Source of the DNA: an uncultured Gammaproteobacteria bacterium
GTDB taxonomy: Bacteria > Patescibacteriota > Patescibacteriia > UBA1558 > S5-K13
Assembly: GCA_964640635.1 (NCBI GenBank)
Contig: CAZXFD010000002.1
Location: 179,115-243,114, forward strand
Direction of reading: 5' to 3'
DNA: 64,000 bases
Position numbers and translations under genes: made by a program. Below, in pieces: positions 18,136 to 51,446 of the stretch. Within the stretch, counting starts at the first letter, position 1. Every line of letters begins with the position of its first letter. A model generated the notes under the pieces. The model had not been told where the DNA came from, searched no databases, and saw nothing but the letters and a program-made list of their open reading frames with translations.

Positions 18136-18167
18136 AAAAACATGGAATTAAAAAACCATGTTTTTTT
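18136..18167. terminator. Hairpin terminator between efp and the convergent transposase-like gene
   Basis: Stem aaaaacatgg/ccatgttttt with an 11-nt loop, flanked by an A-run and a T7 run. Confidence 0.6.
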
Positions 18168-18645
18168 GATCTAAAAATGTATATTTATATTCCTCTGGAG
18201 TATTTGATAGTTTATGTTTCACACAATTAAAATAAACATAATTAGTAATCACTCCTAATTGTTTTTCTATATTAATTTCTCTTGATTTATAGATATACTC
18301 AAACAATCTTCCCGATCTTTTATACTTATCATTAAAATATCTTGTATACGAATGGGCTAATAAACCTATGAATTTTGATATAACTGAGCCACGATATTGA
18401 TTAACTCCAACCCGGGGTTGACCATTCGGCAACCCCGGGTTGGGTTCCTGCAAAACAAAATGATAATGATTTGGTAATAAACAATATGCAATTATATTTA
18501 TACCAGTTTTATAGCTATAAAACCTTAACTTATCCAAAAAATACTCAAAATCTATATCCGAAGCAAAAATCACTTTTTTATCTATGCCTCTATTGTAAAT
18601 ATGATATAGCCCACCACAATATATGTTTCTTTGATTTTTATGCAT
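18148..18645 (-). CDS. IS200/IS605-family Y1 HUH transposase homologue (TnpA/RAYT-like), single ORF
   Basis: YHIYNRG..., HUH motif LPNHYHFVL, and C-terminal NYVYFNCVKHKL (catalytic Tyr region); 165 aa. It contains an in-frame GC-rich perfect inverted repeat at 18408..18443. Confidence 0.7.
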   Translation of the reverse strand: MHKNQRNIYCGGLYHIYNRGIDKKVIFASDIDFEYFLDKLRFYSYKTGINIIAYCLLPNHYHFVLQEPNPGLPNGQPRVGVNQYRGSVISKFIGLLAHSYTRYFNDKYKRSGRLFEYIYKSREINIEKQLGVITNYVYFNCVKHKLSNTPEEYKYTFLDQKNMVF

Positions 18646-18718: not shown

Positions 18719-20044
18719 CTATTTCAACTTCAATTTCCCAGCTATCTCTACGACATCTCTAAATAAAAATTGTCCTAGATTTATATCACCATAAACAATT
18801 GGGAAATATTTCTCTTGTCCTGACTTCTTAAATATATTTGCTATATACATTCCATACAAACCCGTTTCTCTTGGAGTAAGTGCAAACCTTGTAAACAAAA
18901 ATTGCAAATATAGACTCACCGTTTCAATACTGTCCAAATTGTTTGAAATGCTTGTAACAATATCTTCATCAAATTTCAAGAGTAGTGATTTTTTAAATTC
19001 AATAAACAAATTTTTATTATTCTTTATAAAAATATTTATAAGCTTATTTTTAGCAATAAAAACAACTGCTGAAATAAGTTTTTGTTTGTCTTTTGATCTT
19101 ATCATCTCATCAAATTCACCATAAAACTCATCCAAATTATTTTTGTATTTTTCAAACAATAACAAATCATTTTTTGTATTTGAAATACTCTTCTCAAAAG
19201 ATTTGTATTCTACAAGCAGTGCTTCTGCTGGATTTTGTTTCTTGACTACTGGTTCTGGAATTTTGACAGGAGTAGGTTGAACAAATACTTTGTTAACTGC
19301 AGAGACTGATCTATTTATATCAATATTATTAGAAATGTCATCGGTATTATCATTAATTATTTCTGTTTCTATGTCTTTTTTTATACCAAGCTTTGTAAAT
19401 TCTCCTTTGTTAAAATAATAAAGTTCCCCTGATTCATCTTCTATAATAAAATCATTTTCCATGCCCATTGGATCAAAAGAAGAAATACTTAATTTTCTAT
19501 AAAAATTTAATAAAATTTCAATTTTATTTTTTTCTTTATCGGGTAGAGCAAAAAAGTTTTTATCAGAATTAATAAATTTTGTAATGTTTAATGCATCTAT
19601 AAAACCACCTTCGGTAAATTGACCTCTAAAATATTTAAGCCAATTACTTATTGTAGGATCCTCTTGTATATTTCCTATATTTAAACTAGGTGTAGTAATT
19701 TTTAAATTCGATTCCCTAAGAGCGGTTTTTATTTTTGCTTTTAACTCATCTCTATCATCCAAATTTTCATAATTAGTAAGTAAATCATTCATTCTTGCTA
19801 ATATATCATAATTATCTATTTCAAAAACAACGTTAAAATGATTACTAATAAGGTCTAACACGTCATCTTCTTGCAATCTAGAAATTGCCAAATATCCTGT
19901 AACATGCTTCATATTGTATAAAGCTGGATCTTGTTGAGAAATATTTGTCTTTAAAAAATTCTTGATATCCAAAAATAACCTGTAAGCACTTACAATACTA
20001 TTATCATTTAATACATCATTAAATTGTTCTGAAAAATCTTGCAT
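18719..20044 (-). CDS. Hypothetical cytoplasmic protein (441 aa), last gene of the giant-protein operon
   Basis: ORF 12 nt downstream of the 975-aa gene on the same strand. No TM or known motif. Confidence 0.3.
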   Translation of the reverse strand: MQDFSEQFNDVLNDNSIVSAYRLFLDIKNFLKTNISQQDPALYNMKHVTGYLAISRLQEDDVLDLISNHFNVVFEIDNYDILARMNDLLTNYENLDDRDELKAKIKTALRESNLKITTPSLNIGNIQEDPTISNWLKYFRGQFTEGGFIDALNITKFINSDKNFFALPDKEKNKIEILLNFYRKLSISSFDPMGMENDFIIEDESGELYYFNKGEFTKLGIKKDIETEIINDNTDDISNNIDINRSVSAVNKVFVQPTPVKIPEPVVKKQNPAEALLVEYKSFEKSISNTKNDLLLFEKYKNNLDEFYGEFDEMIRSKDKQKLISAVVFIAKNKLINIFIKNNKNLFIEFKKSLLLKFDEDIVTSISNNLDSIETVSLYLQFLFTRFALTPRETGLYGMYIANIFKKSGQEKYFPIVYGDINLGQFLFRDVVEIAGKLKLK

Positions 20045-20055
20045 AATATTTAAAT

Positions 20056-22983
20056 CTAGGATTTACTACGTTTATTAATTACATCTAATAATTTTGGTGC
20101 CTGCTTGCTCAATTCCTTTGTAAAAATGTCACTCATTAAAACTTTTAAAATCTTCGGATTAAATGGGGTCTTTCCATCGTTTATAAGATCTATCAAATTT
20201 CTTTGATGCTTAACTAATTGTTGAATCATGTCGGGACTTACATTATTACCAACGGTATAAGAAGAAACGTGCATTTTTCTAAACAATTCTAATGTTTCTT
20301 TTCCACTATATATTATATCTATTACTTTTTTCTGAGTCTCATCTTTCCAGTGGACTGTCATATCGCTTTTACTACGAATATCTGCGCCGGGCTCGAATCC
20401 TACATTAGACCGCATCTTTCCGTCAATTCCAGTAACAGCCATTTTATCATATTTTAGATTATACTGTCCAGCCTCTTTAGAAATATTATTGGCCATCAAA
20501 GCTAATTGTTCTTCTATTCTTTTATTTGATCCTTTAAGTAGTTGTCTATCTACTACCATTTCTCTTCTTAAAAACTCCATCAATCCTTTACTAGACTTTT
20601 CATATCCAAATTTCTCTAAAATTGCTTCTAAATTATAATCCTTTGCTGCTTTCTGCATAACAACATTAACTTCTGCTATATTCCCACTTGCAAGAGCTTG
20701 ACTTATAGCCGGCACTTGATCTTTATCAAGACTTCCTAAGTTAGCATATTTAGCTTCTGCCTTTCTATTTTCTGCATCACTAACAATTTTACTAGACTCC
20801 TCTTTATTAAGTAGGTTATTCTGTAAAACTTCTTGTTGTTGTAAATCCGTTTCCTTTGTAAAAACTTCTTTCTGTTCTGATAAATATATTTTATTATCAT
20901 GCAAATCTGAAGATGTAACTGTAGTTTTCTTATCTAGATCATTTAGTTCCACCTCTCTTTTAGCAAAAGTATTTATAGCGTCTTGACTCTTCTTTTTTCT
21001 TTCTGATCCACTTATCGTTCTATCACTTTTAATACCCTCTAAAATAGAATTTAAATCATCTGCCATAGATCTTTTTTCTGCAGCAATAATATCTTTAATA
21101 AAAGTCTGTGTGCCACCCCTAGTGCTCATATCCTTAGACAACTCTATCTTCTCTTTAATTTGTTTACTCTCATTTATAAATTTTTGTAAGTCAGCCTCTT
21201 TTAGCTCTATTTGTTTTTCAATACTTTGCTTATCAGCGGCAGTTTTAGCTTTCCCCTTCTTTTTAGTCAATGCTTGAATTTCGAATTGAGCATCTCTAAT
21301 CTCTAAATCCTTATTTACTTGATCTGTTACTAATGCTGTTTCTTCTACTTTTGTTCCCACGACTCCCAAATCCAAGGCTCTTTTAACTCTGTCATTTAAT
21401 TCAATCCTCTTATCAATTTTACCAGAAGTTTCGGTCATCTTATCAATGCTTGTAACACGAGAATCTATAACACTCTTTCTTTTATTACCAAAAACAGCAG
21501 CTGCATACATTTTGCCCCATCCACCAAAAGTTCTTTCATTTTTTTCTCTTTCTGCCTTTGATGCGCCTGTTTTTCCATACCAAACTTTTCCAAAGTTAGA
21601 ATCATTAAACCCATCAACGGCATGTTTTTGTACCGCATCTTTTCTTTCTTTAACTCTATCTTTTCTATCCACATCTATCCTTTCTTTTCTAAGTTGATTT
21701 GCATATGTTCCTGGAATATATTGACCTACCCCAGTTTTACTTACAGCAGAATTCAAAGGATCTACAATGCCTCTTTTCAAAGATCCACCCACTCTTCTAG
21801 TAACACCTCTTTGCATACTCTTTACACCTCTCTTTACATATCCGCTCATCTTCTTCGTCATATTCCCCGCAATATTTCCTCCAGCAACACCAGACTCCTG
21901 AGCAATTTTCATTGACGTTATAAGAAGAGCAATAACTACAACATAATCAAACATATCGTCAATAGTAACAATAGAACTAGCCCCTATTACTTCTGACCCC
22001 TTTGTATTAGCGCCCTTAGTCATGCCCGCTACAATACTCCCACTTTGTGGATTTTCTGGACTTTGTGATCTTTGTATTGTAAGAAGTGACAAATAAAGAA
22101 AAAATGCGAGGACTGGTCCTGTCGTAAGCTGTTTTCCAAACTCAGTCCACCATCTGGAAGAGTATTTACTTCCAAAAGGAGTGCCTTGAAGAAAAAACGC
22201 CATTGGAGACAAAACAACAAGAACCCAAATATACACAATTCTCCAAACCAGTATCACAACAAACATCAAAAGTATTGAAGAAAGAATGACAAGCATAGCA
22301 AGTCCCAGGCCTGCCGTTGTAACTGCCGCTAAGGCTGCATTAAATTCATTATCTCCCTCAAGCTTACTCACAGCAGCATAGTCAAAGTTAAAAACTTTAT
22401 CCAAATGAAGTCCATAAATAATATTTCCTGATGCAATATCTTTGAATCCATTTACGAATGTAAGCATTACAACTTGAGAAAAATCTATCATAAGACCCAC
22501 TATTGTTTTTGAAAAATTTATTATAACAGCGGTCATTATTAATTTGCCGAGCCATTTCTTGTAAGAATATGCTTCATAATTTATTATTGTAGAAAATGCA
22601 ATGACAAGAAGGACTAATATAAAAAACATATTACAAATATCTCTAGTTATCTTCCATCCTTCATCTACGGCAGTGACTCCTTTTGAAAACTTGGTCCATT
22701 GAGCAAATGAAACAAACAATTGTAATTCAAGTTTAATAATTTCCCCTACTAAAGCTGCTAAAACACCTATAAGAGCCACTACTATATTTGCTACACCAGC
22801 ATAAAATACATTTGCATTTACAAAAAGCGGTGACACAAGCAAAATGGCAACCACAAAAACAGAAGACCCTACAAAAATCTTTCTTTTCTTTGATAACAAA
22901 TTCCATGATAACAAAAACTTTTGAAATATTTTTTTCAATCTATAATTCCACAGCGCTAAAGTTTTCTTAAATAATTTTTTCAT
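20056..22983 (-). CDS. Large polytopic membrane protein with a long charged coiled-coil tail; architecture resembles VirB6/TrbL-like T4SS channel proteins
   Basis: About 7-8 predicted TM helices in the first roughly 330 aa with Trp-containing loops, then about 650 aa of K/E/D-rich hydrophilic sequence. The assignment is by architecture only. Confidence 0.3.
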   Translation of the reverse strand: MKKLFKKTLALWNYRLKKIFQKFLLSWNLLSKKRKIFVGSSVFVVAILLVSPLFVNANVFYAGVANIVVALIGVLAALVGEIIKLELQLFVSFAQWTKFSKGVTAVDEGWKITRDICNMFFILVLLVIAFSTIINYEAYSYKKWLGKLIMTAVIINFSKTIVGLMIDFSQVVMLTFVNGFKDIASGNIIYGLHLDKVFNFDYAAVSKLEGDNEFNAALAAVTTAGLGLAMLVILSSILLMFVVILVWRIVYIWVLVVLSPMAFFLQGTPFGSKYSSRWWTEFGKQLTTGPVLAFFLYLSLLTIQRSQSPENPQSGSIVAGMTKGANTKGSEVIGASSIVTIDDMFDYVVVIALLITSMKIAQESGVAGGNIAGNMTKKMSGYVKRGVKSMQRGVTRRVGGSLKRGIVDPLNSAVSKTGVGQYIPGTYANQLRKERIDVDRKDRVKERKDAVQKHAVDGFNDSNFGKVWYGKTGASKAEREKNERTFGGWGKMYAAAVFGNKRKSVIDSRVTSIDKMTETSGKIDKRIELNDRVKRALDLGVVGTKVEETALVTDQVNKDLEIRDAQFEIQALTKKKGKAKTAADKQSIEKQIELKEADLQKFINESKQIKEKIELSKDMSTRGGTQTFIKDIIAAEKRSMADDLNSILEGIKSDRTISGSERKKKSQDAINTFAKREVELNDLDKKTTVTSSDLHDNKIYLSEQKEVFTKETDLQQQEVLQNNLLNKEESSKIVSDAENRKAEAKYANLGSLDKDQVPAISQALASGNIAEVNVVMQKAAKDYNLEAILEKFGYEKSSKGLMEFLRREMVVDRQLLKGSNKRIEEQLALMANNISKEAGQYNLKYDKMAVTGIDGKMRSNVGFEPGADIRSKSDMTVHWKDETQKKVIDIIYSGKETLELFRKMHVSSYTVGNNVSPDMIQQLVKHQRNLIDLINDGKTPFNPKILKVLMSDIFTKELSKQAPKLLDVINKRSKS

Positions 22984-23058
22984 TTACTTTTGTATAAATT
23001 ACAATACTCAATTCCCAATAACCAATATACAGAAATTAGAGTATTGATTATTCTTTTG

Positions 23059-26000
23059 TTATTGTGGGTATATTTTTATTGAACATGTATCAGCTCCACA
23101 CATATAGGTTCCCTTGCTTTTACCCCAGCTATCTGTAATTTGTAAATATGGTGTATATTTACAACATCCCCTTCCATTTCCACAATTATCTAACCATGTA
23201 TCGCTCATAGGGCTACAAGAATATAAATGTGAAAATGTTAAATAGCTTTTTTCATCGCCAATGTCTTCTTTACAAGCATCTTCATGATCTCCCCATGTTT
23301 TAGCAAAACACTGCATACCACTTGGACAAAGAACATTTTCTCCACACTCCGCACCCCATGTATTAGCACTTGTAGATGGAAAAGCTTGTTTATAGGTTAC
23401 TCCACATCTTCTTATACAATCAGGTTTACGATTTTTAAATGGACCTGCAACAGTAAAACAATCTCCATTTTCAGAATTACTATCCCAACAAATTTTTATT
23501 TCTCTTATTGGAGTTTGATTTGGCACTGCATAAGCATAAAAAGAAATATCTATGTTGGTATTATTTTTTCCAACTACAACATAATCCTTTGCTGGATTTC
23601 GATTAATAGAAAATCCTTCATTGCCCTCTCCGCCACCATCAGAAACTGATTTTACAGATCTAATTACAGGATTTTCACCACCAACAACATTCCAATTAAT
23701 ACTATTATCTTGTAACCACTCGACTCCATTAAAAGTTTTGAGATTACTATTCGGAATACCGACTATTAATTGCCCCAAATTAGTTTTTGCTTGCGCTATA
23801 TCATTTCCATAATACCCTGGAAACACACTACTAAAACCACCTGATACAAATATTGGATCTTGACTTGTACCAACAGCAGCTCCAAAACTTGGGTGTAAAG
23901 AATTAGCCACCCAAGAAGCAGAGTTTGTAGGCCCAACTTGTAAAATCATTTTATTATTTCTAGCGAAACCAGAAATACCATAGGAGGAAGATGATCCAGA
24001 CAACATAGACGGACAAAATATATCAGATGCTAGAGGGTCTTTACAAAATTCTCGCCATCCATCTATAGCTATTGCTGGTAATGTAGCGGTAGTAAATTTT
24101 TCAATAGAAATAGTATTTAAATAAAAATTATTTGCTTTAAACTTTACAGAACCATCTAAAATAGCAGAAGTTTTGCAACTCTTTAAACACTTATCATTTG
24201 CACAACTAGTTAGCATAGATTGTGTTCCTGATTGATTGAATATGCTACAAGTATTACAATCAGAATTTCCAAAACGCAAACAATCTTGATCAAAAAGTGG
24301 ATTAGGATTATTGCTATTAGGAAGCATGCGATTTTTTTGACAACCATCTGGACAACAACCATTTTTTCTATTTTCACATTTTCTTGTGCCATCAATATTG
24401 CGACAAGCACTATAAGGAATTTCTGCCGACCTACAATCCGCTACATTATTATATAACAATGGAGATCTTGGATCTTGATAATTATTAATATCATTTCCAA
24501 AACATCTTACAATCTCGCTTTCTAAACTTGGATATATATACGATGCGATCCCTGTGCTTGAATAAGGATCTCTATATATAGAACAAGAATGTGATATATT
24601 GTCTAATTGGTTAATAATTTCAAAGTGTGCAACAATATCACAAGATGTATCAAACTCATTGGGTGTTTGACTTTTACATAAACCAACATTAAAACTTCTA
24701 GGACCAGAAGGATTAGTGTTTTGTCCACCAAATTGATTAACTAGAGTTGCATACACAGATGTAGATGAAGAATTTCTAAGACATCCTCTTCCAAAGCTAA
24801 AATCTCCGGATTCAATAGGATCATACTTACAGTCTTTACCACATTTGCCAGTACGACTTGGCATTGGATTAACTCCTGAATCATTTATATAGTAACCATA
24901 AGTTCTAGGATTACAAGAAAGACTTTTCATGCGACGAGTATGTCCCATATTCGTCCAACCACAATGATCACCTTCCCATTCACGATAGCTTATCTGATGA
25001 GTATCTGTGGGACACACAGGAGTATCTGGCCAATCACCATTACAAGATTCTAAATATATATTGGTAGAATTTGAAAACTCAATATCATATGCATAAATAA
25101 GCATAGGCATAGATACTGATCCTACAAAAATATCATCAAAACTATCTGATAAATTTGCATTTGCTGTTAACCCAAATTGATCGCCAGAAAACATTCCGCC
25201 CAAAGCATTATCTTTTACTATTATGCTAGCTTGCCCTTGCACATCAAAATTAAGCTCGCTTCTTGTTTTATAATTGGTCAGCCAATATGTATTGCTACCA
25301 ATATTATTGGCACTAATCATTGAATCGTTTGGCACCAATACTAGTTTAATACACTGGTTACTTGCATCTGTTTGCAGACAATATATTCTATCTTCTGTAG
25401 TTTTATAATTATTTCCTACAATACACATCGTGGCACCCTCTGTAAGTTTAGAAACGATATCTGCTTGAGGGGCATAAGATGTAGAATCAACTTCTCCAGA
25501 TATTGCATCCACTGGATACCAGGAAAGACATCTATAATTCAAATTGCTTGGATCATTATATGATGTTTTATAGCCTGTATTTATAAATCTAGACTTATCG
25601 TAGTCAAGACAGAACCCAAACCATCCCATATTTTTTGCAATTTTTTTAATTTTCATTGTACTCGTTGTGATACCATCATTTGACGTCTCTATTGTATTTG
25701 GAATATCTATACCTTCATAAGGATAAAAAAGTGTTTCCATTCCATAATTTACACTCCTATAACTACAATCACTTGACTGTCCTTGATTCAAAACATTTGA
25801 CTCTCCAGGCTTTAGGGCACCATAAGATGGCTGAGAAATATTTGCATTTGCAAATGCTGAATCTTTTCCAGTAATTATTGCATATTTACTTCCTGCGCCA
25901 TTTAATTCATAATTTAAAACCATACTATTATTTGGCGTCCAAGAGAAAGGAGAGTCTTTTTCTGGATAAAGTCTACAAGACTTTAGACTAGAAATATTTA

Positions 26001-29000
26001 TTATACCAGCAGTATCTGCAATACTAGAGAGTGGATTTGTATATGAAATACCATCTTTATATAAATACTGTCCTCTTTTTATAATATGGCCTAGATTATA
26101 TGTAGACATACTAGAAGATGTCGTTTTATATGTACTTAGTGAATGAGGGGCATAAGCGCCTGGCATAGAATATCCACTATAGATCATATTAGACCATGAT
26201 CCAGAACCTAAGTCAGAATAATATTTTTCCAAATTAAGAGCCTTATCATTTTGATTTTTTGGAATATAGTTTGCACAATCTCCTGATGAGGAAAGATTAT
26301 TACATCCAATAAGTGAAACACAAGAGTATTTATCCTGTCCTTCAGTATCTACTGTTTTTATTTTTGATGAACATGTATCCCATTCTCCACACTCTCTATC
26401 TCTTACAACTTTTAGAAGTTCGTTGGAATCATTATTGTAGCTTGGATCATTTGAATTGATACCAACAAGAGATCCATTTTCATAACTTCTTAAAGCATTG
26501 GACGATAGGTTTGATTTAGAAAGATTATTAAATAACACGCAACCATCTTTTACACTTGCCTTACTACAGCTTGTTTTATCAAGCTCTTCATTATCTATAT
26601 AGTAATAATTACCCTCCATTTTCTCAAACCTAATATCTTTTAATTTTACTACTGCACCACTTTTACCTTTCACATAAAATGCAACATTACAATAATTAGC
26701 ACCTGGCAAGATTTTATATAGCCCCGATATTTGATGCGATTTATTATCTGATTCCTGTATAAAATAATTTGCCTTCGTAAATGGAAATGCGTATGGAATT
26801 GAACCAGATATAACACCCCCCTTAGGATTATTATTTTCCCCACCGACTACACTGTCTTCAACGTATGATATTGCTCCATCTTGACCTCTTGGACCACAGC
26901 TTAAAAATGTGCTTATATACTCTTTACCATCAGTGGTCAAGCCATCAAACTCTACATTAGCACTCAATCTATAAACAGCATTTTCACTAACAGAAAAGCC
27001 AAAAGGATTACTTTTTGAAGCCTTATAGATAATAGTATTTTTATCTGAGATATTAAAAGAAAGAACATTGTTCACACTTGAAGCCAACAAATTACTTACA
27101 TTTTCAAATTGTCCGTTTTGCCAATTTGCCGAACTCCAAGAACCAGAATTTGTAAAATTGATTTGCTGATGTGTTGCATTTGTAGCTTCTATAGATAAAT
27201 CTTTTGAATCTGTTGGATCTATAAACATAGAACACTTATTTTGATTACTATTACAAGAAACTGAGTAATCGTTGTTGTAGCCTCCAAATGGAGCAATGCC
27301 ACTATCGATATAACTTATATCACTGAGTAATAAATTATAGTTTTCATTATAAATACTTCCTTCACAAGAGATATTGGCATCATTTACATTATAGTATCCC
27401 GCAGCTCTACCGTTTGATGCGTCTGCTTCTTTATACTCGCAAACCTTGTCTCGAGGATGAATTTTATAAATTGTTCCACCACCAGAAACTGAAAACGCCG
27501 AACAATCTCTAAATTCAGAAAGACACAAAATTTTATTACTAGATCCAAAATAATCATCTTGTATATAATTATCTGGATTATTTATTTTGTATACATCTTG
27601 ATATTTACCGTCATCTCCCTTAAATCCAAATGCACTACACCCTTTGTTTGAAGATGCGCATAAATTATTTCTTTCTTTTATAATATATACTAGTCTATCT
27701 TTAGAAACTACTATTGTACTACTAGAGAAATTTCCGGAATTTATGTTTGAATAATTTTTATAGTATGTTCTTCCATTAGAACATTCTCCGCCAGAACTAT
27801 TTGAACAATATGCATTATAGGTTTGTTGAAATGGCATTTCTGAGTTTTGTGTATCTATCATAGCACTACAGCCAACATTCTTTTCATTACATGTATTTGT
27901 AAATTGATGAAAATACCAAGGATTATTATCTCTATCAGAATATTTTTGACATCCTAAATATCCTCTACACGTTGCAGGAGTTACCCAAGAATCTTTGATT
28001 TTGTAAAAATCACTTGTAATTTCTTTTAAGCTTATATTATCTATAAAAAATGTTTTATAATCATCTGGTAATGTTATTGAGAATTTCAATATATAATCCC
28101 CACTTGCTGAAGTTTCTAAGTCACGCCAATTATATTTATACTGCAACCATTCTTGATTATTTTCTAATTGCATCAATCCAAAATCAAGATTATTTACATT
28201 CAAAGCATGGGCTTTAAATAATTTAATTGGATTTAAATTGAGAAATTCTATAGCTGGCTTTGTTTTTTGTTGGGCGGTATCGTGATTATTATTATTTGGA
28301 TTATTATCGTTTGAACTTTTTGCCCAAAAATCAAGAGTATATCTTTTACCAGGAATAAGTGTCTCTCCATTTTGAGTCAAGTTGTATTCTATAGAAACCG
28401 TATTACCAGAGGAAGAATAAACTACCATAGAATGACCATTATACACAGTGGACTCATTACTTGGTGCCTTACTTCCTCCAAAAACTTCCCCCAGAAAAAC
28501 GCCTGAGGGTTCAAAATCTTCAAACAAAACACTTCTTATATTATTTCCATTATTACCCTTATATCTACGACATCCTACGCTTGTTGCACTACATTTTGTA
28601 CTCATAGATGGCACAGCTCTATAGACAACACTAGATCCATCAGATGCTTCTCTTCTTAAATCAATACAACTATCTGTTACCGGAATGGTTTTTGAAAGAA
28701 GTCTATTGTGCGGCTGGGCATCTTTATCATAGAAGGTTCGACAATCTAAATTTGTATTTGGATCACATTGTCCCTCCCCTTCTACATCGGCAAGACCTAT
28801 GTCAGAACAAGTGCTTGTTGCCCCTATTTCAACATTTGTACAAGGTGCCTCACTTTTATTACTCTTTAAAAACCTCCACGTCTTAAGCTGGAATCCACTT
28901 GTATCGGAGCCTTCCCATGTATAATAAATAGTTGATGAAACTGCAGATGGTTTTACGCACTGTCTTAAGTAGCTATAATATTCCCTTGCTTCACCACCCT

Positions 29001-32000
29001 TATTTGCTTTATCAACATTCGTAAACAACTCACAAGACTCTTGTGACGGAGAACAATCTTTTGCAGACCCTGAAATAAAATCTTTATTTTCTAGCCCTAC
29101 AATGCCAGAATTACTTTCAAGAATTTCAAAATAACTTGGATATTGTGAAAATGTTTGATAATTATTACACTCAGATGGACAAATATCTTCTTGAGATACT
29201 ATACCCGACACTATTTGATCCCCATTTTCAGGTTTATATGCCTCACAACCAAGATCGTCTTTGCTACAATATTTAGAATAATTAGCACAACTTACATCTG
29301 GATTTGCAGAATTACAATTATAATAACTTGGGGCTTTTTTCATATGCAAAATACCCTTTTCACCATAATTGTTATACATACTAGGAACACCCACTCCACT
29401 TGAAACATTAGATGCATCATAATTATTCAATTCAAATTGCACTGCATCTATGTAAACGTCTCCACTTACTGCAAATTTAATACTTGCGCCCGATGAATTA
29501 CCATTTACTCCAAAATATCCCGACTTCATTTCCCATTGAGATTCCCCACTAGAGTAATTTGCATCAGTATTAGTAATAGATTCCCCATTTAAAATCAAGC
29601 TTGGGGTAACACTTACCACATCACTCGATCTTAATTTTTTTACTCTATAACTAAGCGTATATAAACCTTTATTTAAAATATTAAAATCTGAATTACTTAT
29701 ATCCAATTTAAGAATACTGTCTCCTTTTGTATGTAGAATAGAGTACCTGCCATCAAAAGCTTCTGTAGTTGTTGTCATAAAATTTGGAGCATCCCATCCA
29801 TCTGGAATCATATCTTCGTTTTCATCTATTTCAAAACTTGGATTTGGAACAAGATTAAGTCCTGGAATAATTTCTATAAATTTTGAACATCCTTCATTAC
29901 CTTTATCACAAGATAATACATTTTTGTTGAAATAATTAAAGTCTGTTGTTGCCCAAACATAATTTCCTTCGGCATTTTTTGTTTTATATTTGGAATATTC
30001 TTTACATCCTGCTTCATCTGGTGGACAAGATTTTAGCGTATCTAGTATATAAGATTTTTCTTTGCCCGCATCATCTTTTAGAGCTACGCATCCTGCGGAT
30101 TTTTCATCACATTTTCTTCCTCTAAATTTCCATATATTTTTTTCTTTGAGACAATATCCATATCCCAAACAGTTTCCATTATCATCTTCTTTGAGACAAT
30201 TTTTTACATCCGCACAATCTTTGTATCTATTTGGTGACTCTGCTGACTCAAGAGCAGAATAGTATCCTTCTGAAGCACATTGTTGTTTTGGGGCTTTTAG
30301 AACCCAATTTGGATCTACAAGTCTACAGAATGGAGACTCGTCTTTTTCTTTCACAACACATCCTCCATATATCCACTCATGATAAAAAGTCTCTTCATAG
30401 CTATTATTACAAGTAGTTTCATTGTTCAAAGCAACTGCCGTTTCTATTTCTTTTGAAACAACGACGCCCTCACTATCGATATTATACTTCATACAATATC
30501 CTTGAGCATTTCCAGTCCCAACCCATTTTACATCAATAGTGGATGCATCCACCCCAAGCATTCCTGCAGCATTACAATTTGCAGCTGAGGTAATATTAAT
30601 ATTGTAAGGGGCGAGACTTACAGATCTATATCCACAATAATTGTCCTTTATGGTTTCATTACCCCTCTTAAAAGTTCCTGTTTTATCATATCCTTCCATG
30701 ACAGAAACTAGCTTACATCCCCTACTATCACATCCTGCTGGATAATTATCTGGGTTTAGTTTGGCTACTTTAAGGGCTGCAAATTCCCAACCCACAGGAA
30801 CAACTCTATTTTTTCTAAGTTTCTTTATGTTGTCATAAGAGTAGCCCTCATCAAGCATTGGTTGTCTAATCGAGGTGCCTATATCTATATAACCAATAAA
30901 TTTATTTCCATCTAAAAGATTTTCATCAATTGCTTCTTTGGTGGTAAGTGGTTCTGTTTCAGCACGTCTAAGCACGTCTGCAAATTTTGAGTCTATTGTT
31001 TTGTTGTTCATTTTTCCCATAAACTCATCACCCATATCCATTTCCATCTCAGCTATAAGATTTATATCTCGTGGATTAATATTCATAGAGATTCTGTTTA
31101 TAGTTGAAAAAATTTCATCAATTATACCCGTTTTACTGCCCACAAAAGATCCAGATCCATCTGCCAAATCTGCTTGTGGCGCTTTTTCTTTCATCAAATT
31201 TTGAATAAGTGTATTTAGGCCCTTACTTACAAGAGTATTTAAAAATATATTTGCCGAATCAACTAGAATATCCTCCGTTCTAAGTTTTGCAGCATCTTCA
31301 TTTCTTTTTTGGATATTAATAAGCTCTTGTTTTGTTAATTCTGCTGGAACTATTAAAGATTTAGTAATAAGGGACCTTTTACCTTTTGGAGAATCTCCTG
31401 CAGTTATATTTGCTACTGTATCAGCATCTGCTTTTTTTACCGCATCCTTAGCTGCCTGCACAGCATCTTGAACAAAATTTGTATCACTTTTTTGAAATGA
31501 AATAGTATCCTTCAAAAGTTCTGCCTGTAATTGCCTTCTTTGATCTGGAGTTAGTTTTGAATTTACAATTGAAGATGTAGGAATACCAAATTTTGAAAGA
31601 TCATATCCCGTAGTTTTTAATACATCCATCAAAGATGAATCATTTAAACTTATTATACTAAGCGGATTAGTAAGTTGAGTTGCAAAATCTCCCCATTTTT
31701 TCTTTAACTCGTCCAAAGAACATCTTGGCTTCATAGACGCTACATCCGTATCTTTCAAATTTAATTTCAAAGAAAGTGCCAAATTAATAGGTAAATCCAT
31801 TGTTGGTGGCTGACATATATTTATTCCATATCCTGAAGCCAAATTATCCAAAAACTCAGCACCAGCCGCTTCTCCTGCAAGTCTTGCTTCATCAACAATA
31901 AGTTTTGTAAACCACTGAGGCTTACCACCTGCATCTCCCGTTGCTATTTGAGTTGCTGCTTTGTATGCAAGCTGATTTGAAAAAGATTGAAATGCTCTCA

Positions 32001-32208
32001 TAAAAGCAACCGAGCCACCCTTGTTCCATAAATAAGTAGTAGCGCCAGATACTCTTTCCCAAACCCATTTACCAGCCTGCAAAACTGATTGAACAGGATC
32101 TGTAAATTGAGCATGTGCCTTTCGTGGAACAAAAAATGAAATATTAGCAGAAAAGAAAAAAACAAAAATCATTATTACTAAAGTTTGTTTTTTATTTTTT
32201 ATATTCAT
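23059..32208 (-). CDS. Giant (3049 aa) cysteine-rich protein with an N-terminal signal peptide and CBM4/9-like beta-sandwich modules
   Basis: N-terminal signal peptide (MNIKNKKQTLVIMIFVFFFSANISFFVPRKAHA). Very high Cys/Asn/Ser/Gly/Tyr content and a recurrent C-x4-6-G-C-x-x-[FY] motif (at least 9 copies, e.g. CDEKSAGCVAL, CSKDDLGCEAY, CNEKNVGCSAM). At least two segments start like CBM4/9 modules (NPSFEIDENEDMIPDGW, FEDFEPSGVFLGEVF). Confidence 0.6.
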   Translation of the reverse strand: MNIKNKKQTLVIMIFVFFFSANISFFVPRKAHAQFTDPVQSVLQAGKWVWERVSGATTYLWNKGGSVAFMRAFQSFSNQLAYKAATQIATGDAGGKPQWFTKLIVDEARLAGEAAGAEFLDNLASGYGINICQPPTMDLPINLALSLKLNLKDTDVASMKPRCSLDELKKKWGDFATQLTNPLSIISLNDSSLMDVLKTTGYDLSKFGIPTSSIVNSKLTPDQRRQLQAELLKDTISFQKSDTNFVQDAVQAAKDAVKKADADTVANITAGDSPKGKRSLITKSLIVPAELTKQELINIQKRNEDAAKLRTEDILVDSANIFLNTLVSKGLNTLIQNLMKEKAPQADLADGSGSFVGSKTGIIDEIFSTINRISMNINPRDINLIAEMEMDMGDEFMGKMNNKTIDSKFADVLRRAETEPLTTKEAIDENLLDGNKFIGYIDIGTSIRQPMLDEGYSYDNIKKLRKNRVVPVGWEFAALKVAKLNPDNYPAGCDSRGCKLVSVMEGYDKTGTFKRGNETIKDNYCGYRSVSLAPYNINITSAANCNAAGMLGVDASTIDVKWVGTGNAQGYCMKYNIDSEGVVVSKEIETAVALNNETTCNNSYEETFYHEWIYGGCVVKEKDESPFCRLVDPNWVLKAPKQQCASEGYYSALESAESPNRYKDCADVKNCLKEDDNGNCLGYGYCLKEKNIWKFRGRKCDEKSAGCVALKDDAGKEKSYILDTLKSCPPDEAGCKEYSKYKTKNAEGNYVWATTDFNYFNKNVLSCDKGNEGCSKFIEIIPGLNLVPNPSFEIDENEDMIPDGWDAPNFMTTTTEAFDGRYSILHTKGDSILKLDISNSDFNILNKGLYTLSYRVKKLRSSDVVSVTPSLILNGESITNTDANYSSGESQWEMKSGYFGVNGNSSGASIKFAVSGDVYIDAVQFELNNYDASNVSSGVGVPSMYNNYGEKGILHMKKAPSYYNCNSANPDVSCANYSKYCSKDDLGCEAYKPENGDQIVSGIVSQEDICPSECNNYQTFSQYPSYFEILESNSGIVGLENKDFISGSAKDCSPSQESCELFTNVDKANKGGEAREYYSYLRQCVKPSAVSSTIYYTWEGSDTSGFQLKTWRFLKSNKSEAPCTNVEIGATSTCSDIGLADVEGEGQCDPNTNLDCRTFYDKDAQPHNRLLSKTIPVTDSCIDLRREASDGSSVVYRAVPSMSTKCSATSVGCRRYKGNNGNNIRSVLFEDFEPSGVFLGEVFGGSKAPSNESTVYNGHSMVVYSSSGNTVSIEYNLTQNGETLIPGKRYTLDFWAKSSNDNNPNNNNHDTAQQKTKPAIEFLNLNPIKLFKAHALNVNNLDFGLMQLENNQEWLQYKYNWRDLETSASGDYILKFSITLPDDYKTFFIDNISLKEITSDFYKIKDSWVTPATCRGYLGCQKYSDRDNNPWYFHQFTNTCNEKNVGCSAMIDTQNSEMPFQQTYNAYCSNSSGGECSNGRTYYKNYSNINSGNFSSSTIVVSKDRLVYIIKERNNLCASSNKGCSAFGFKGDDGKYQDVYKINNPDNYIQDDYFGSSNKILCLSEFRDCSAFSVSGGGTIYKIHPRDKVCEYKEADASNGRAAGYYNVNDANISCEGSIYNENYNLLLSDISYIDSGIAPFGGYNNDYSVSCNSNQNKCSMFIDPTDSKDLSIEATNATHQQINFTNSGSWSSANWQNGQFENVSNLLASSVNNVLSFNISDKNTIIYKASKSNPFGFSVSENAVYRLSANVEFDGLTTDGKEYISTFLSCGPRGQDGAISYVEDSVVGGENNNPKGGVISGSIPYAFPFTKANYFIQESDNKSHQISGLYKILPGANYCNVAFYVKGKSGAVVKLKDIRFEKMEGNYYYIDNEELDKTSCSKASVKDGCVLFNNLSKSNLSSNALRSYENGSLVGINSNDPSYNNDSNELLKVVRDRECGEWDTCSSKIKTVDTEGQDKYSCVSLIGCNNLSSSGDCANYIPKNQNDKALNLEKYYSDLGSGSWSNMIYSGYSMPGAYAPHSLSTYKTTSSSMSTYNLGHIIKRGQYLYKDGISYTNPLSSIADTAGIINISSLKSCRLYPEKDSPFSWTPNNSMVLNYELNGAGSKYAIITGKDSAFANANISQPSYGALKPGESNVLNQGQSSDCSYRSVNYGMETLFYPYEGIDIPNTIETSNDGITTSTMKIKKIAKNMGWFGFCLDYDKSRFINTGYKTSYNDPSNLNYRCLSWYPVDAISGEVDSTSYAPQADIVSKLTEGATMCIVGNNYKTTEDRIYCLQTDASNQCIKLVLVPNDSMISANNIGSNTYWLTNYKTRSELNFDVQGQASIIVKDNALGGMFSGDQFGLTANANLSDSFDDIFVGSVSMPMLIYAYDIEFSNSTNIYLESCNGDWPDTPVCPTDTHQISYREWEGDHCGWTNMGHTRRMKSLSCNPRTYGYYINDSGVNPMPSRTGKCGKDCKYDPIESGDFSFGRGCLRNSSSTSVYATLVNQFGGQNTNPSGPRSFNVGLCKSQTPNEFDTSCDIVAHFEIINQLDNISHSCSIYRDPYSSTGIASYIYPSLESEIVRCFGNDINNYQDPRSPLLYNNVADCRSAEIPYSACRNIDGTRKCENRKNGCCPDGCQKNRMLPNSNNPNPLFDQDCLRFGNSDCNTCSIFNQSGTQSMLTSCANDKCLKSCKTSAILDGSVKFKANNFYLNTISIEKFTTATLPAIAIDGWREFCKDPLASDIFCPSMLSGSSSSYGISGFARNNKMILQVGPTNSASWVANSLHPSFGAAVGTSQDPIFVSGGFSSVFPGYYGNDIAQAKTNLGQLIVGIPNSNLKTFNGVEWLQDNSINWNVVGGENPVIRSVKSVSDGGGEGNEGFSINRNPAKDYVVVGKNNTNIDISFYAYAVPNQTPIREIKICWDSNSENGDCFTVAGPFKNRKPDCIRRCGVTYKQAFPSTSANTWGAECGENVLCPSGMQCFAKTWGDHEDACKEDIGDEKSYLTFSHLYSCSPMSDTWLDNCGNGRGCCKYTPYLQITDSWGKSKGTYMCGADTCSIKIYPQ

Positions 32209-32237
32209 AAATAGCCTGTCCCGCTATAACGGGATAA

Positions 32238-32969
32238 TTATTGATTTTTTGATGCTTCTTCATTTAATGTCTGAATGTAAACACTTTGTATTTCTTCATC
32301 TGAAAACTTCGACAAGTCACTTTCGGTTGCACCTTGACTTATCAAAAGTTGTTTAATTTCTTGAATTGACAAGTTCTTTAATTTCTCTAATTCAGAAGAT
32401 GCAGTATTTGTATTTTCGATTTCACTACCAGATGGAGTAATTTGATCTATAATTTCTTGTGAATACCCAGCCTCAAGTAATTGTTTTTTTATATCATCAT
32501 AATTTATAGCTTCACCAAAAATACTTGAGCTAGCAGAAATTACAGATAAATTTGCAGACGCATTACAAGATAAAATATCTGTACAATTATTTCCCTTACC
32601 TAAAATTACTTCATCATAATCAGATATATCATTACTATTTGTATCCGCCAAATAAGGACTTGTTCCATAAATATTCATTTCATCGGTATCAGATAATCCA
32701 TCACCATCGGTATCCTTGAGACTGTTTAAGCCTTCTATAATATAGGACTTATCACTAAGAGATATTTGAGAGGAGACAAATGAATTTTTTATTCCATATA
32801 TCATTTTCCAAGAACCTAGTAAAATAGACATAATTCCTATAACAAAAATAATTTTTACCCCCACTGAGTCTCTAGAAAAATATTTAAAAATTTTAACCAA
32901 AAAACCATCTTTTATTTCAAGAATACTTTGATCATTTTCAGCATATCTTTGTTCTCTATCAAGACCCAT
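32238..32969 (-). CDS. Membrane-anchored protein with a thrombospondin type-3-like Ca-binding repeat; first gene of the giant-protein operon
   Basis: One TM helix (IIFVIGIMSILLGSW), DTDGDGLSDTDEMNIYGTSPYLADTNSNDISDYDE repeat, and an acidic C-terminus. It lies 30 nt upstream of the giant gene. Confidence 0.45.
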   Translation of the reverse strand: MGLDREQRYAENDQSILEIKDGFLVKIFKYFSRDSVGVKIIFVIGIMSILLGSWKMIYGIKNSFVSSQISLSDKSYIIEGLNSLKDTDGDGLSDTDEMNIYGTSPYLADTNSNDISDYDEVILGKGNNCTDILSCNASANLSVISASSSIFGEAINYDDIKKQLLEAGYSQEIIDQITPSGSEIENTNTASSELEKLKNLSIQEIKQLLISQGATESDLSKFSDEEIQSVYIQTLNEEASKNQ

Positions 32970-33053
32970 AAATAAAATATTGGGAGATAAAAATCTTTAA
33001 CTTAATTATACTAATTTTTGTAAATTTGGTCAAAGAAATTTAATATAAAAAAT

Positions 33054-38028: not shown

Positions 38029-39270
38029 TTGTCAAAAAAGATTTTAAAAGACCCTATTTTATCTATTTATCACTTTTTATTAAAAATAAAGATAAAAAAC
38101 AAAAAAGAGAATAGCCAAGATTTTCATCCTCTTGCAAATAATAGAAAAAAACAAAAGAGCAATCTTCAATATATACTATTTATTACTTTTGCTATTTTTG
38201 TAATAAGCAATAACTTGTTTGCAAAAACAATACCCCCAGAAGAATTTGGCCAAAAATCAATACTCTCAAAAATTATTCCGCCGCAACAAAATGATTTTAT
38301 AGTTGGGGAAGAACTTATTGAAGAAAGAGGCAGTGCAATAATTAATCAAACGACAAATAGTGATCAGCTCGTGTATTATCCTGGATTTCAAGGGCAAGGA
38401 GATCCAGACATAACTAGTGGTGAAACAATAATCCAAACAACAAATGATGGAACAACTCTTATTGCAAGAAATGTAGCGAATACTCAACTAGGAAATGCTA
38501 TAAATAGAAATGAAATAACTCAGTATACTATTTTAGATGGTGATACAGTTTCTGGTATAGCACATAAATTTAATGTTTCTGTTGCAACCATTCTTTGGAG
38601 TAATAATCTTACAGAAAGAAGCCTTCTAAAACCTGGAATGACTCTAAAAATTCTTCCAACAACTGGAATATTACATAAAGTTGCGCGTGGAGAAACAATT
38701 GCCGCAATTGCAAAAAAATATAAAGCAGATGCTCAAAAAATATTAGATACAAATAGCCTTGCTAGCGCAAATCAAATAAAAATTGGACAAGAACTCATAA
38801 TTCCAGATGGTATAAGGCCAGCAAGTATAACAAATATTGTTACAAAAACAACGACCGCTGGAAAAACTACAGTTTCTAAAACATCTCTTAGTCCAACAAA
38901 TCCAAACACTGGCACAAAATTGTTATGGCCAGCGGGTGTAAGAAGAATTTCTCAATACTATGGATGGAGACATACTGGAGTAGATATAGCGGGTCCTATT
39001 GGAACACCAATTTATGCTGCCGAAGATGGGGTTGTTGAAACAGCTGGATGGAATAGTGGTGGCTATGGAAATTATATTATTATAAATCATGGGGGTGGCC
39101 TTAGAACGCTATATGGTCATGCATCTAAACTATTCGTCGGTCGTGGAGAAAAGGTAACTCGTGGACAAGTAATTATGGCAATGGGTTCAACTGGTAGATC
39201 TACTGGATCACATTTGCATTTTGAAGTAAGAATTAATGGATTCAAAAATCCTCTTAGTTATATAAGATAA
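38029..39270 (+). CDS. Cell-wall hydrolase with two LysM domains and a C-terminal M23 (LytM-type) peptidase domain
   Basis: Two LysM-like segments (YTILDGDTVSGIAHKFNVSVATILWSNNL; HKVARGETIAAIAKKYKADAQKILDTNSL). M23 motifs HTGVDIA...GSTGRSTGSHLHFEVR. N-terminal TM anchor. Confidence 0.8.
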   Translation: MSKKILKDPILSIYHFLLKIKIKNKKENSQDFHPLANNRKKQKSNLQYILFITFAIFVISNNLFAKTIPPEEFGQKSILSKIIPPQQNDFIVGEELIEERGSAIINQTTNSDQLVYYPGFQGQGDPDITSGETIIQTTNDGTTLIARNVANTQLGNAINRNEITQYTILDGDTVSGIAHKFNVSVATILWSNNLTERSLLKPGMTLKILPTTGILHKVARGETIAAIAKKYKADAQKILDTNSLASANQIKIGQELIIPDGIRPASITNIVTKTTTAGKTTVSKTSLSPTNPNTGTKLLWPAGVRRISQYYGWRHTGVDIAGPIGTPIYAAEDGVVETAGWNSGGYGNYIIINHGGGLRTLYGHASKLFVGRGEKVTRGQVIMAMGSTGRSTGSHLHFEVRINGFKNPLSYIR

Positions 39271-39623: not shown

Positions 39624-41039
39624 ATGGTTTTTAGTTCACTTATTTTCATTTTTGTATTCCTTCCAATATTTTTATTGGTCTATTATTTATTACCCCATAA
39701 ATGGCGCAATCTATTTATTGTAATTGGGGGTTATTTTTTTTACTCTTGGGGTGCACCAAAATTTGCACTTATTTTGTTCCTAACTATTGCAGTAGATTAT
39801 ATAATAAGTTTATATTTAGCCAAAATAAAATCTTCACAAAAAAAATATTTACTTGTTATATCTATATTAATGAACGTTGGGCTTCTAGCTTATTTTAAAT
39901 ATAGTAATTTTTTTATAGAGCAGGTGAATGGACTACTTATTTTTGCAAATTTTCCAGAGCTTCCATGGAAAGAAGTAATTTTGCCTATTGGTATTTCTTT
40001 TACTATATTTCAAGAGTTAAGTTATATTATAGAAGTTTACAAAGGCAAAATAAAACCAGCAGACACTCTTATTGATTTTGCAGCATACCTAATGCTATTT
40101 CCACATCTAATAGCTGGCCCTATAGTTCGCTATATTGATATTGCAAAGCAGCTAAAAACAAGAACTTATAATGCCAGCGGCTTCTATTATGGAATAAAAC
40201 GTTTTACACTCGGCCTATCAAAAAAAGTTTTGATTGCCAATCCAATGAGTTCCATAGCTAATGCAGCATTTCATTTAAACTCGGTTCGCGATCTAGCATC
40301 TCCACTAGCTTGGCTTGGAATATTATCATACTCATTACAAATTTATTTTGATTTTTCTGGATACTCTGATATGGCTATTGGGCTTGCAAAGATGCTTGGA
40401 TTTGATTTTAGAGAAAATTTCAATAGACCATATATTGCAAAGAATATTACCGACTTTTGGACTCGCTGGCATATTTCTCTTTCAACATGGATGAAGGAGT
40501 ATCTATATATACCACTTGGAGGAAATAGAATATCCACAGCAAGAACATATATCAATCTATGGATAGTTTTTGTAATCTCTGGATTATGGCATGGAGCAAA
40601 TTGGAACTTTATTTTATGGGGTGTTTTTCATGGAATTTTACTAGTCGCTGAACGCTCATTCTTACTAAAATATTTATCAAAAATACCTAAATTTATTCAA
40701 ATTGGATTTACTTTTTTCTTAATTAACCTATCTTGGGTATTGTTTAGAGAAGAAAATTTATCACTAGCAATGAAGTTTTACAGACGACTATTTACTTTGG
40801 GAGATTTTTTCAAACCCATTAATATTCGCATGGGTGAAATCATAAACACAAAACAAATAGCTATTTTTGTTATTGCAATGCTAATAATATTTATGCCTTG
40901 GAAAAAAATATTCCATAAAAATATATCTAACAAAAAAACCGAAATATTCTTAGGCGTATTTAATTTAGGATTATTTATTTTTGCAATCATGGAATTATTT
41001 AATTCTCAATTTAATCCATTTATTTACTTTAGATTCTAA
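39624..41039 (+). CDS. MBOAT-family membrane-bound O-acyltransferase (AlgI/DltB-like)
   Basis: Polytopic 471-aa protein with the conserved His in WTRWHISLSTWMKEYLYIPLGGNR, typical of AlgI/DltB. Confidence 0.8.
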   Translation: MVFSSLIFIFVFLPIFLLVYYLLPHKWRNLFIVIGGYFFYSWGAPKFALILFLTIAVDYIISLYLAKIKSSQKKYLLVISILMNVGLLAYFKYSNFFIEQVNGLLIFANFPELPWKEVILPIGISFTIFQELSYIIEVYKGKIKPADTLIDFAAYLMLFPHLIAGPIVRYIDIAKQLKTRTYNASGFYYGIKRFTLGLSKKVLIANPMSSIANAAFHLNSVRDLASPLAWLGILSYSLQIYFDFSGYSDMAIGLAKMLGFDFRENFNRPYIAKNITDFWTRWHISLSTWMKEYLYIPLGGNRISTARTYINLWIVFVISGLWHGANWNFILWGVFHGILLVAERSFLLKYLSKIPKFIQIGFTFFLINLSWVLFREENLSLAMKFYRRLFTLGDFFKPINIRMGEIINTKQIAIFVIAMLIIFMPWKKIFHKNISNKKTEIFLGVFNLGLFIFAIMELFNSQFNPFIYFRF

Positions 41040-41041
41040 AT

Positions 41042-49785: not shown

Positions 49786-49834
49786 TAAAGCTCACTAAAA
49801 AAATAATACTAATTTAAAATAAACATTAATCTAT

Positions 49835-50173: not shown

Positions 50174-50275
50174 TAACCTTTTATATTTACTATAAAAATA
50201 GTATAATTTATATATAATTTTAAATAAGAAAAAAATAATAATCTCCCTTTACTGGGAAAAGAAAGGAATCAACAA

Positions 50276-50683: not shown

Positions 50684-50826
50684 TTTAGATACTCTTATCC
50701 TCTCTTTGAGGGGATAAGTAATTTGAATTATACCCTGCGGGGAATAAACAATACACAATCACCAATAATCAGACAAATTCCAGCTTCCACTTCTTGAATT
50801 CTTGATTATTGATTATTGAGCATTAT

Positions 50827-50871: not shown

Positions 50872-50960
50872 GGAAAGGTCTCTGGACCGAAGGGTAATTT
50901 AAGATTTGATTATTGATTATTCACGAAGTAACTTATTTAATTGATATTAAAATCAATCTA

Positions 50961-51434: not shown

Positions 51435-51446
51435 AAAGAATCAAAT

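Follow-up and report, generated by a model that had tools for sequence, protein, structure and literature searches.

Why should a gene for a secreted, Cys-rich giant protein of 3049 amino acids (aa) lie directly upstream of a gene for a polytopic, channel-type membrane protein? The question is raised by four consecutive minus-strand genes in a stretch of 64,000 nucleotides (hereafter the window) from contig CAZXFD010000002.1 of GenBank assembly GCA_964640635.1 (positions 179,115 to 243,114 of the forward strand). The organism is a Patescibacterium, with nearest named relatives in Ca. Komeilibacteria, followed by Falkowbacteria and Kerfeldbacteria, all belonging to the Patescibacteria or candidate phyla radiation (CPR). 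From first to last, the genes encode a 243-aa protein with a TSP3 repeat, the giant, a 975-aa protein and a 441-aa protein (Table 1). A preliminary description of the unit, made from the sequence of the window, gave coordinates, strand and lengths for the four open reading frames (ORFs) which are all borne out; the close packing of the genes is real, although the spacers, given there as 12-76 nt, measure 29, 75 and 11 nt and the figures were thus off by one. The same description regarded the unit as a dedicated display or export module of undescribed composition. Our analysis identifies it as the VirB6-containing half of a Patescibacterial type IV secretion system (T4SS) operon, and we consider it probable that this half is the surface-proximal one and that the giant provides it with host recognition and adhesion.

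In the 975-aa protein we recognize a divergent homologue of VirB6/TrbL, that is, the polytopic membrane subunit of a T4SS. Its first 400 aa are well conserved. Its hydropathy profile contains at least 6 peaks within aa 36-356 (approximately 8 by eye), in agreement with the 7-8 transmembrane (TM) segments expected from the first inspection, and these are followed by a 575-aa tail which is indeed charged (K 13%, D+E 15%, net charge +17). The tail is poorly conserved, with a mean column identity of 16% over the last 260 aa among 26 relatives, and contains no conserved domain. At least 898 relatives of the protein were found, and most of those for which a source is named bear the label Patescibacteria. 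The TrbL profile (PF04610) was matched by 5 of 35 relatives at 17.5-22.9 bits, under the cutoff of 25.9, and one relative has a weak precomputed match to TrbL_3 (PF19590). The AlphaFold2 (AF2) model displays an all-helical membrane domain (predicted local distance difference test score, pLDDT, 72; predicted template modelling score, pTM, 0.61), and when it was compared with the PDB using Foldseek, 5 of the top 6 matches were TrwI/VirB6 of R388, with probabilities of 0.91-1.00 and template modelling scores (target) of 0.32-0.58, the fourth match being a designed helical repeat protein. Profile searches against the PDB returned low-complexity and coiled-coil matches only for the full-length alignment and nothing for the N-terminal alignment. 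The VirB6/TrbL likeness proposed in the preliminary description is thus upheld by the sub-threshold TrbL matches in relatives, the structural matches to TrwI/VirB6 and the synteny with VirB3 and VirB4 described below. By analogy, the protein may putatively serve as the oligomeric base of a stalk or as a platform for pilus assembly.

The gene neighbourhood was compared across the best 80 of 586 genomic relatives, with all ORFs annotated by phmmer, which yielded 81 distinct loci after deduplication. Close relatives carry the same four genes in the same chromosomal slot, beside efp-rpsR-ssb-rpsF, so that both the single same-strand unit and the conservation of its neighbourhood, on which the preliminary description had hinged, are found in relatives as a conserved block. 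The canonical order starts with the TSP3 gene, the giant, 0-2 small genes, the VirB6-like gene and the 441-like gene and continues with a family that we call '497', PrgI/VirB3, a TraC/TrsD-like gene, VirB4 and a family that we call '207'. Since the same genes run on in more distant relatives into VirB3/PrgI, TraC/TrsD-like and VirB4, the module is part of the described Patescibacterial T4SS, and the notion of a self-contained, dedicated module has to be abandoned in favor of one half of a known secretion system. Of the 52 loci with at least 9 kb of upstream flank, 40 encode a giant upstream of the VirB6-like gene, a lower bound, because several of the negatives (about five) contain an ORF of 900-1700 aa running off the end of the locus; the two genes share a strand in all 40 and are often 0-200 nt apart. 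VirB4 (67-72% identical across lineages) lies downstream of the VirB6-like gene in 38 of the 48 loci with at least 7.5 kb of downstream flank. In 63 of 65 loci, the VirB6-like gene is immediately followed by a member of the 441-like family, and a homologue of the TSP3 gene directly precedes a complete giant in 22 of 36. The association of the giant and TSP3 genes with the VirB6-like gene is therefore conserved in many Patescibacteria. Where both flanks are present (35 loci), 16 loci have the giant together with VirB4, 9 have the giant alone, 10 have VirB4 alone, and none lacks both. In some loci (L008 and L087), metabolic genes are inserted between the giant/VirB6 half and the VirB4 half, suggesting that the separation of the two proceeds in steps, consistent with the full split seen in the window and in Komeilibacteria-like relatives.

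Eight VirB2-like pilin genes are arrayed elsewhere in the window (Table 1), at a distance of approximately 16 kb from the module, and probably belong to the same secretion system. The encoded pilins are 402, 112, 135, 173, 128, 132, 135 and 135 aa long, the first one carrying an N-terminal extension of approximately 200 aa ahead of the pilin domain. Arrays of VirB2-like pilin genes are a hallmark of Patescibacterial T4SSs (PMC10633639, PMC12102498), which are essential for epibiotic growth and have pilins but neither relaxase nor coupling protein (PMC10633639). VirB6 and pilins being, as is generally known, ancestrally conjugation genes, the module could alternatively be a remnant of an integrated conjugative element, particularly as a gene for a Y1 (RAYT/IS200-like) transposase adjoins it (18148..18645, minus strand). 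We regard this origin as scarcely credible. The unit occupies the same slot beside efp-rpsR-ssb-rpsF even though the VirB6-like proteins of the relatives are only 38-59% identical, its GC content (0.32-0.35) is close to that of the flanks (approximately 31% for the window), and the transposase gene is missing from this position in relatives L002, L004 and L006. Furthermore, no relaxase, coupling protein or integrase was seen among the Pfam-scanned ORFs of the window, a scan that covered all but a few of the ORFs of at least 100 aa. The mobile-element explanation was rejected because the chromosomal context is conserved. The product of the adjoining Y1 gene reaches 49 bits with the model for REP-associated tyrosine transposases, for which the cutoff is 80 bits, and a second Y1 transposase gene of the IS200/RAYT-like kind is located at 57279..57830 (minus strand).

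The giant itself is a member of a large, Patescibacteria-wide family. An exhaustive profile search with aa 1-800 retrieved 2451 cluster representatives at E<=1e-3, of which 1195 reached E<=1e-30; in the best 150 listed, nearly all are 2000-3300 aa long, and a word-indexed search returned 26 relatives of 2350-3590 aa, the NCBI name of the relatives being 'carbohydrate binding domain-containing protein'. One homologue (P0131) is labelled Nanoarchaeota, and many related records (L010, L012, L014-L017 and others) are titled 'uncultured Gammaproteobacteria bacterium' despite clearly Patescibacterial gene content and similarity; both labels are probably taxonomic errors in the public records. As first described, the protein starts with a predicted signal peptide (Table 1), in which a K-rich n-region precedes the hydrophobic stretch, and is rich in Ser (11.0%), Asn (9.2%), Gly (7.6%), Tyr (5.1%) and Cys (3.5%, 106 residues). 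The N-terminal domain contains, after its helical part, a conserved Y-S-Y..KKLRK.R..PVGWE.AA block. The first 800 aa had no match in the PDB profile search, and their AF2 model is poor (pLDDT 57), with all Foldseek probabilities against the PDB below 0.1, which we treated as meaningless.

The stalk that follows is built of short Cys loops interrupted by three segments resembling beta-sandwiches (aa 780-965, 1225-1410 and 1680-1870). The literal motif C-x(4-6)-G-C-x-x-[FY], for which at least nine copies had been reported, occurs 7 times in the giant, so that the copy number does not stand, whereas the enrichment does (0.09 copies expected, with at most 2 in any of 2000 shuffled sequences). The looser motif C-x(5-9)-C-x2-[FYLMW] is present 19 times, compared to 3.2 +/- 1.7 expected and a shuffle maximum of 9. 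Among five aligned relatives (35-74% identity), 64 of the 65 Cys residues in aa 481-2300 are invariant, indicating that the stalk cysteines are structural. The repeats match nothing in Pfam, NCBIfam or the PDB, consistent with the earlier statement that they fit no described domain, and the Cys-loop repeat and the N-terminal domain may each represent a new domain family.

Of the beta-sandwich-like segments, two had been described as modules of the CBM4/9 type, that is, carbohydrate-binding modules (CBMs). This holds, by orthology, for aa 1225-1410: the segment itself scores 19.2-19.5 bits against CBM_4_9 (PF02018), below the cutoff of 25.9, but relatives P0127, P0131 and P0135 reach 32.1, 43.9 and 43.1 bits in about the same segment, as judged by BLAST coordinates. 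The best PDB profile matches of the segment are xylanase CBMs, which are not significant (E 0.15-1). The other segment, aa 780-965, remains unverified, since neither it nor aa 1680-1870 has a Pfam or significant PDB match, and hhalign detected no relation among the three. Thus, at least one predicted CBM_4_9-type module is supported in the giant. A match of P0127 to DUF4141 (aa 27-52; 20.9 bits with a cutoff of 30) spans the signal-peptide junction and was judged spurious. The CBM_4_9 matches in orthologues, the type I dockerin which P0135 additionally carries and the NCBI name of the relatives could all be reconciled with a cellulosome-like scaffold that processes polysaccharides for nutrient acquisition. 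Such a function appears very improbable to us, given that neither the giant nor the proteins encoded around it showed a domain of a glycoside hydrolase, a lyase or an esterase in Pfam and NCBIfam scans, that only one CBM is supported, and that the hypervariable cassette described next would suit variable partners better than a uniform polymer.

Comparison with relatives divides the giant into four parts, of which the base, the stalk and the C-terminal end are conserved and the cassette between stalk and end is hypervariable. Conserved blocks cover aa 1-490, approximately 620-1600, approximately 1850-2000 and the C-terminal 250 aa or so. The closest relative, P0121, is 70-92% identical over most of aa 1-2200, and within the stalk (aa 491-2299) the identity per 100-aa window is 50-92%, mostly 70-92%. 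In the cassette it drops to the values given in Table 1, and the same drop at aa 2300-2800 is observed in four other relatives (among P0122-P0126). Only 3 of the 25 Cys residues of the cassette are conserved, and for aa 2457-2670 BLAST produced no alignment even to the closest relative, which is 74% identical elsewhere. Identity then returns to 54-63% over aa 2901-3049, and the C-terminal domain, which has no sortase signal, TM segment or Pfam match, can be aligned in the distant P0128. The conserved cysteines, the hypervariable cassette, the CBM_4_9 matches of orthologues and the dockerin of one relative make up an architecture in keeping with a surface adhesin, and judging from its sequence the giant may bind glycans in this capacity.

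The conserved partners are equally informative about the setting. The 243-aa protein has a single TM segment (aa 35-53), followed by an extracytoplasmic part with an acidic C-terminal half, and matches the bacterial TSP3 repeat (PF18884) at 30.1 bits, above the cutoff of 25, which confirms its description as a TSP3-repeat membrane protein. It contains one repeat only, with the motif DTDGDGLSDTDE at aa 86-97 (DxDxDGxxDxxE, of the Ca-binding type), and may act as a Ca-binding anchor. A YkuD L,D-transpeptidase encoded elsewhere in the window (10386..11162, plus strand) has three TSP3 repeats (62 bits), so that the repeat looks like a general module of envelope proteins in this organism rather than one specific to the partner of the giant. 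The VirB6-like subunit has a conserved soluble partner in the 441-aa protein, which has no TM segment by hydropathy and no Pfam, NCBIfam or PDB profile match. Further families recur in the loci of relatives. The '497' family (410-630 aa; L007:13802-15295; approximately 40 loci) always fills the interval from the 441-like gene to PrgI and the '207' family (approximately 205 aa; L007:18376-18999; approximately 40 loci) always comes immediately after VirB4, both with no Pfam match on record. In most Patescibacterial T4SS loci, the VirB6-like gene is directly preceded by a gene for a membrane protein of 150-270 aa (65 loci by hidden Markov model, HMM; for example L008:9302-9997 and L025:9384-10004). 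The N-terminus of this protein is charged and disordered, its C-terminal part forms a TM segment, and it contains an 'LGEEW' motif; the HMM found no member in the window or in Komeilibacteria-like relatives. In L008, a gene of the DsbA/Thioredoxin_4 type (22308-22532) directly follows the VirB4 cluster, and its product could promote disulfide formation in the Cys-rich giant.

How the giant would be deployed follows a simple scheme. It would be exported by Sec; approximately 50 disulfide-type Cys pairs would stiffen it into a long stalk bearing the CBM-like beta-sandwiches; the conserved N-terminal domain would hold it at the machine or the cell surface through the VirB6 platform, a VirB2-type pilus or the TSP3 protein; and the distal hypervariable cassette, together with the sugar-binding module or modules, would contact the envelope of the host cell. 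In this manner, the giant would supply host recognition and adhesion to a T4SS for which no adhesin had previously been identified. Because the giant has a Sec signal peptide, VirB6 is not needed for its export. The reverse relationship, in which the giant is a cargo or effector that requires the VirB6-like channel for release or surface deployment, draws on the tight linkage of the giant gene to that of a channel-type protein and on the fact that the function of the Patescibacterial T4SS is open, protein export having been suggested (PMC10633639). We find it improbable: a classical cleavable Sec signal peptide makes T4SS-dependent crossing of the membrane unnecessary; the giant has no evident charged C-terminal translocation signal and ends in a conserved Cys-rich domain. 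As a matter of general knowledge, approximately 50 probable extracytoplasmic disulfide pairs and a length of 3049 aa are also atypical for T4SS substrates.

The assignment of host recognition to the giant, as the adhesin of a T4SS half, has to be weighed against several observations which count against it. The set of loci consists of the nearest relatives, is biased to ABY1-like lineages and is not phylogenetically independent, and in 10 of the 35 loci with both flanks, VirB4 is present but no giant is recognized. HMMs for VirB4, PrgI/VirB3, TraC/TrsD-like, '497' and '207' found nothing in the window plus 10 kb to its left; a complete T4SS in this genome is thus assumed rather than demonstrated, and its ATPase half (VirB3, TrsD-like, VirB4) must be encoded elsewhere in the genome. 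The 975-aa protein itself has no Pfam or NCBIfam match, and the Foldseek E-values of its TrwI/VirB6 matches are weak (0.025-0.13). Adjacency is the only link between the giant and the T4SS, the N-terminal domain of the giant showed, in comparisons limited by its poor model, no similarity to VirB5, PrgB or any solved fold, and the sugar binding, Ca binding and disulfides of the giant and the TSP3 protein are predictions.

Some of these points agree with a different explanation, according to which the giant and its TSP3 partner are a general pair of surface adhesin and envelope protein that share the neighbourhood of the T4SS genes and act independently of them. The giant has its own Sec signal peptide, none of its domains ties it to a T4SS component, 9 of the 35 loci have a giant with no VirB4 nearby (in addition to the 10 with the opposite pattern), TSP3 repeats occur also in an unrelated envelope enzyme of the same genome, YkuD, and other CPR genomes encode many large Cys-rich exported proteins with no tie to a T4SS (PMC4736985). 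The arrangement of the loci points the other way, as all 40 giant-containing loci encode the giant upstream of the VirB6-like gene and on its strand, the giant stays with VirB6 rather than with the housekeeping genes when the cluster splits, and no locus among the 35 lacks both the giant and VirB4. We therefore consider independent action unlikely, although it deserves more attention than any of the other alternatives. A role of the giant in host recognition for the T4SS is inferred from its sequence and position, and the protein is a good candidate for it. A stronger version of this reading, in which the giant is an integral T4SS component that is attached to the VirB6 platform by its N-terminal domain or uses this domain to cap the pilus (as a functional analogue of VirB5 with an unrelated fold) while the cassette and CBMs set the host, is conceivable but doubtful. 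If the giant is integral and the cassette exchangeable, the protein would be a host-range determinant for a large part of the CPR.

Transcription of the four genes as one unit is compatible with the signals found around them. The highest-scoring sigma-70-like site in the 17.5-34.5 kb interval, a promoter candidate (Table 1), lies just ahead of the module, within the 84 nt that separate its first gene from rsmA/ksgA, and no convincing minus-strand terminator was found in the gaps of the unit, the similar sites in this range being located inside the giant ORF only. The total of sigma-70-like sites and the number of terminator-like sites do not exceed those in shuffled sequences, so that this picture is only suggestive and the promoter is a candidate. 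Beyond the left end of the window, approximately 6-8 kb away, are parA and parB (L090:1-4074), preceded by four small unannotated ORFs (129-198 aa); accordingly, the module may be near the replication origin, and T4SS genes are close to the origin in several classes of Patescibacteria (PMC12102498). On the plus strand, the window further encodes a LysM and M23 peptidase (38029..39270) and an MBOAT/AlgX-like O-acyltransferase pair (39624..42181), with a possible role in cell-wall remodelling. The essential T4SS region of Southlakia epibionticum, cluster SEML1_0006-0019, includes peptidase and lysozyme genes (PMC12102498).

Table 1. Positions of the genes, protein segments and signals discussed in the text, numbered from the first nucleotide of the window.
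Feature	Position	Strand	Details
TSP3 gene	32238..32969	minus	243 aa
Giant gene	23059..32208	minus	3049 aa
Giant, signal peptide of the Sec type (aa 1-34)	32107..32208	minus	MNIKNKKQ, hydrophobic aa 9-27, AHA/Q junction; read by eye and from hydropathy
Giant, N-terminal domain (aa 35-490)	30739..32106	minus	Conserved family-wide; mostly helical to approximately aa 340
Giant, stalk (aa 491-2299)	25312..30738	minus	Short Cys loops C-x5-9-C-x2-aromatic and three beta-sandwich-like segments
Giant, CBM_4_9-type module (aa 1225-1410)	27979..28536	minus	Itself below the cutoff; relatives pass Pfam
Giant, hypervariable cassette (aa 2300-2800)	23809..25311	minus	14-23% identity to P0121
Giant, Cys-rich C-terminal domain (aa 2801-3049)	23062..23808	minus	12 of 14 Cys conserved
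VirB6-like gene	20056..22983	minus	975 aa
VirB6-like protein, polytopic VirB6/TrbL-like domain (aa 1-400)	21784..22983	minus	Invariant GW..RD..NMFF and GPV.AFF motifs
VirB6-like protein, charged tail (aa 401-975)	20059..21783	minus	Poorly conserved, of the 'extended VirB6' kind
441-aa gene	18719..20044	minus	441 aa
VirB2-like T4SS pilin array, eight genes	48577..53092	plus	PF18895, 28-47 bits in all (cutoff 26.6)
Sigma-70-like promoter candidate	33005..33033	minus	TTGACC-17-TATAAT, 11/12; top score in 17.5-34.5 kb

The T4SS is among the few machines shown to be essential for epibiotic Patescibacteria, and the surveys published on it report no adhesin. The secretion system as such, its VirB6 component and the pilin arrays have already been published (PMC10633639, PMC12102498, PMC12857230). 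In the part of the T4SS literature that was covered, the family of Cys-rich giants with CBMs, the TSP3 partner, the 441-aa family and the cassette are not described, and within the same partial coverage we found no published description of a link between the giant or TSP3 proteins and the T4SS of the CPR. The 2025 survey states that 'No adhesins, such as PrgB, were detected', and its text does not mention a giant, carbohydrate or TSP3 (PMC12102498). The TSP3 membrane protein, the 441-aa family, the '497' family and the membrane protein of approximately 200 aa are newly pointed out here as conserved, unannotated T4SS partners, and, for a group to which a large share of bacterial diversity belongs, the giant family offers a concrete candidate for host recognition and host range that can be put to the test.

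Among known systems, the closest is the MPF-FATA-related T4SS of Patescibacteria (Wang et al. 2023, PMC10633639; Quinonero-Coronel et al. 2025, PMC12102498), with which the locus shares the VirB6-like protein, the pilin array, a chromosomal position with no relaxase seen and, in relatives, the continuation of the operon into PrgI/VirB3, TrsD/TraC-like and VirB4. It differs from that system in the detachment of the VirB6 half from the VirB4 half, and the components described for it do not include the giant, the TSP3 protein or the 441-aa partner. VirB6/TrwI of Gram-negative T4SSs (the R388 stalk; PDB 7O3V, 8RT9, 8RTD) is the best structural match and has a similar polytopic helical domain, and 'extended VirB6' proteins (PMC12857230) have a comparably long hydrophilic C-terminal extension. 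By contrast to R388 TrwI/VirB6, the identity of the present protein is approximately 10-12%, with no Pfam match, no recognized VirB5 partner and a tail that is not conserved, and unlike in the Gram-negative setting, the cell is presumed to be monoderm.

The role proposed for the giant is that of surface adhesins of Gram-positive conjugative T4SSs, such as PrgB of pCF10, and of the pilus-tip adhesin VirB5, namely, a Sec-exported surface protein encoded in a T4SS locus and contacting the target cell. However, the giant is 2-10 times larger than these proteins, is rich in Cys, has no LPXTG sorting signal and shows no detected similarity to them in sequence or fold. Its module also differs from a typical CBM_4_9 (PF02018) in scoring below the cutoff and being embedded in a non-enzymatic giant protein. 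The Cys-rich proteins of Ca. Peribacter riflensis, for which no link to a T4SS was reported (PMC4736985), resemble the giant by description in being large, equipped with a signal peptide and variable among strains. Such large, strain-variable, extracellular Cys-rich proteins of the CPR have been proposed as attachment factors (Anantharaman et al. 2016, PMC4736985); the giant fits this proposal and could fill the adhesin gap left by the 2025 survey.

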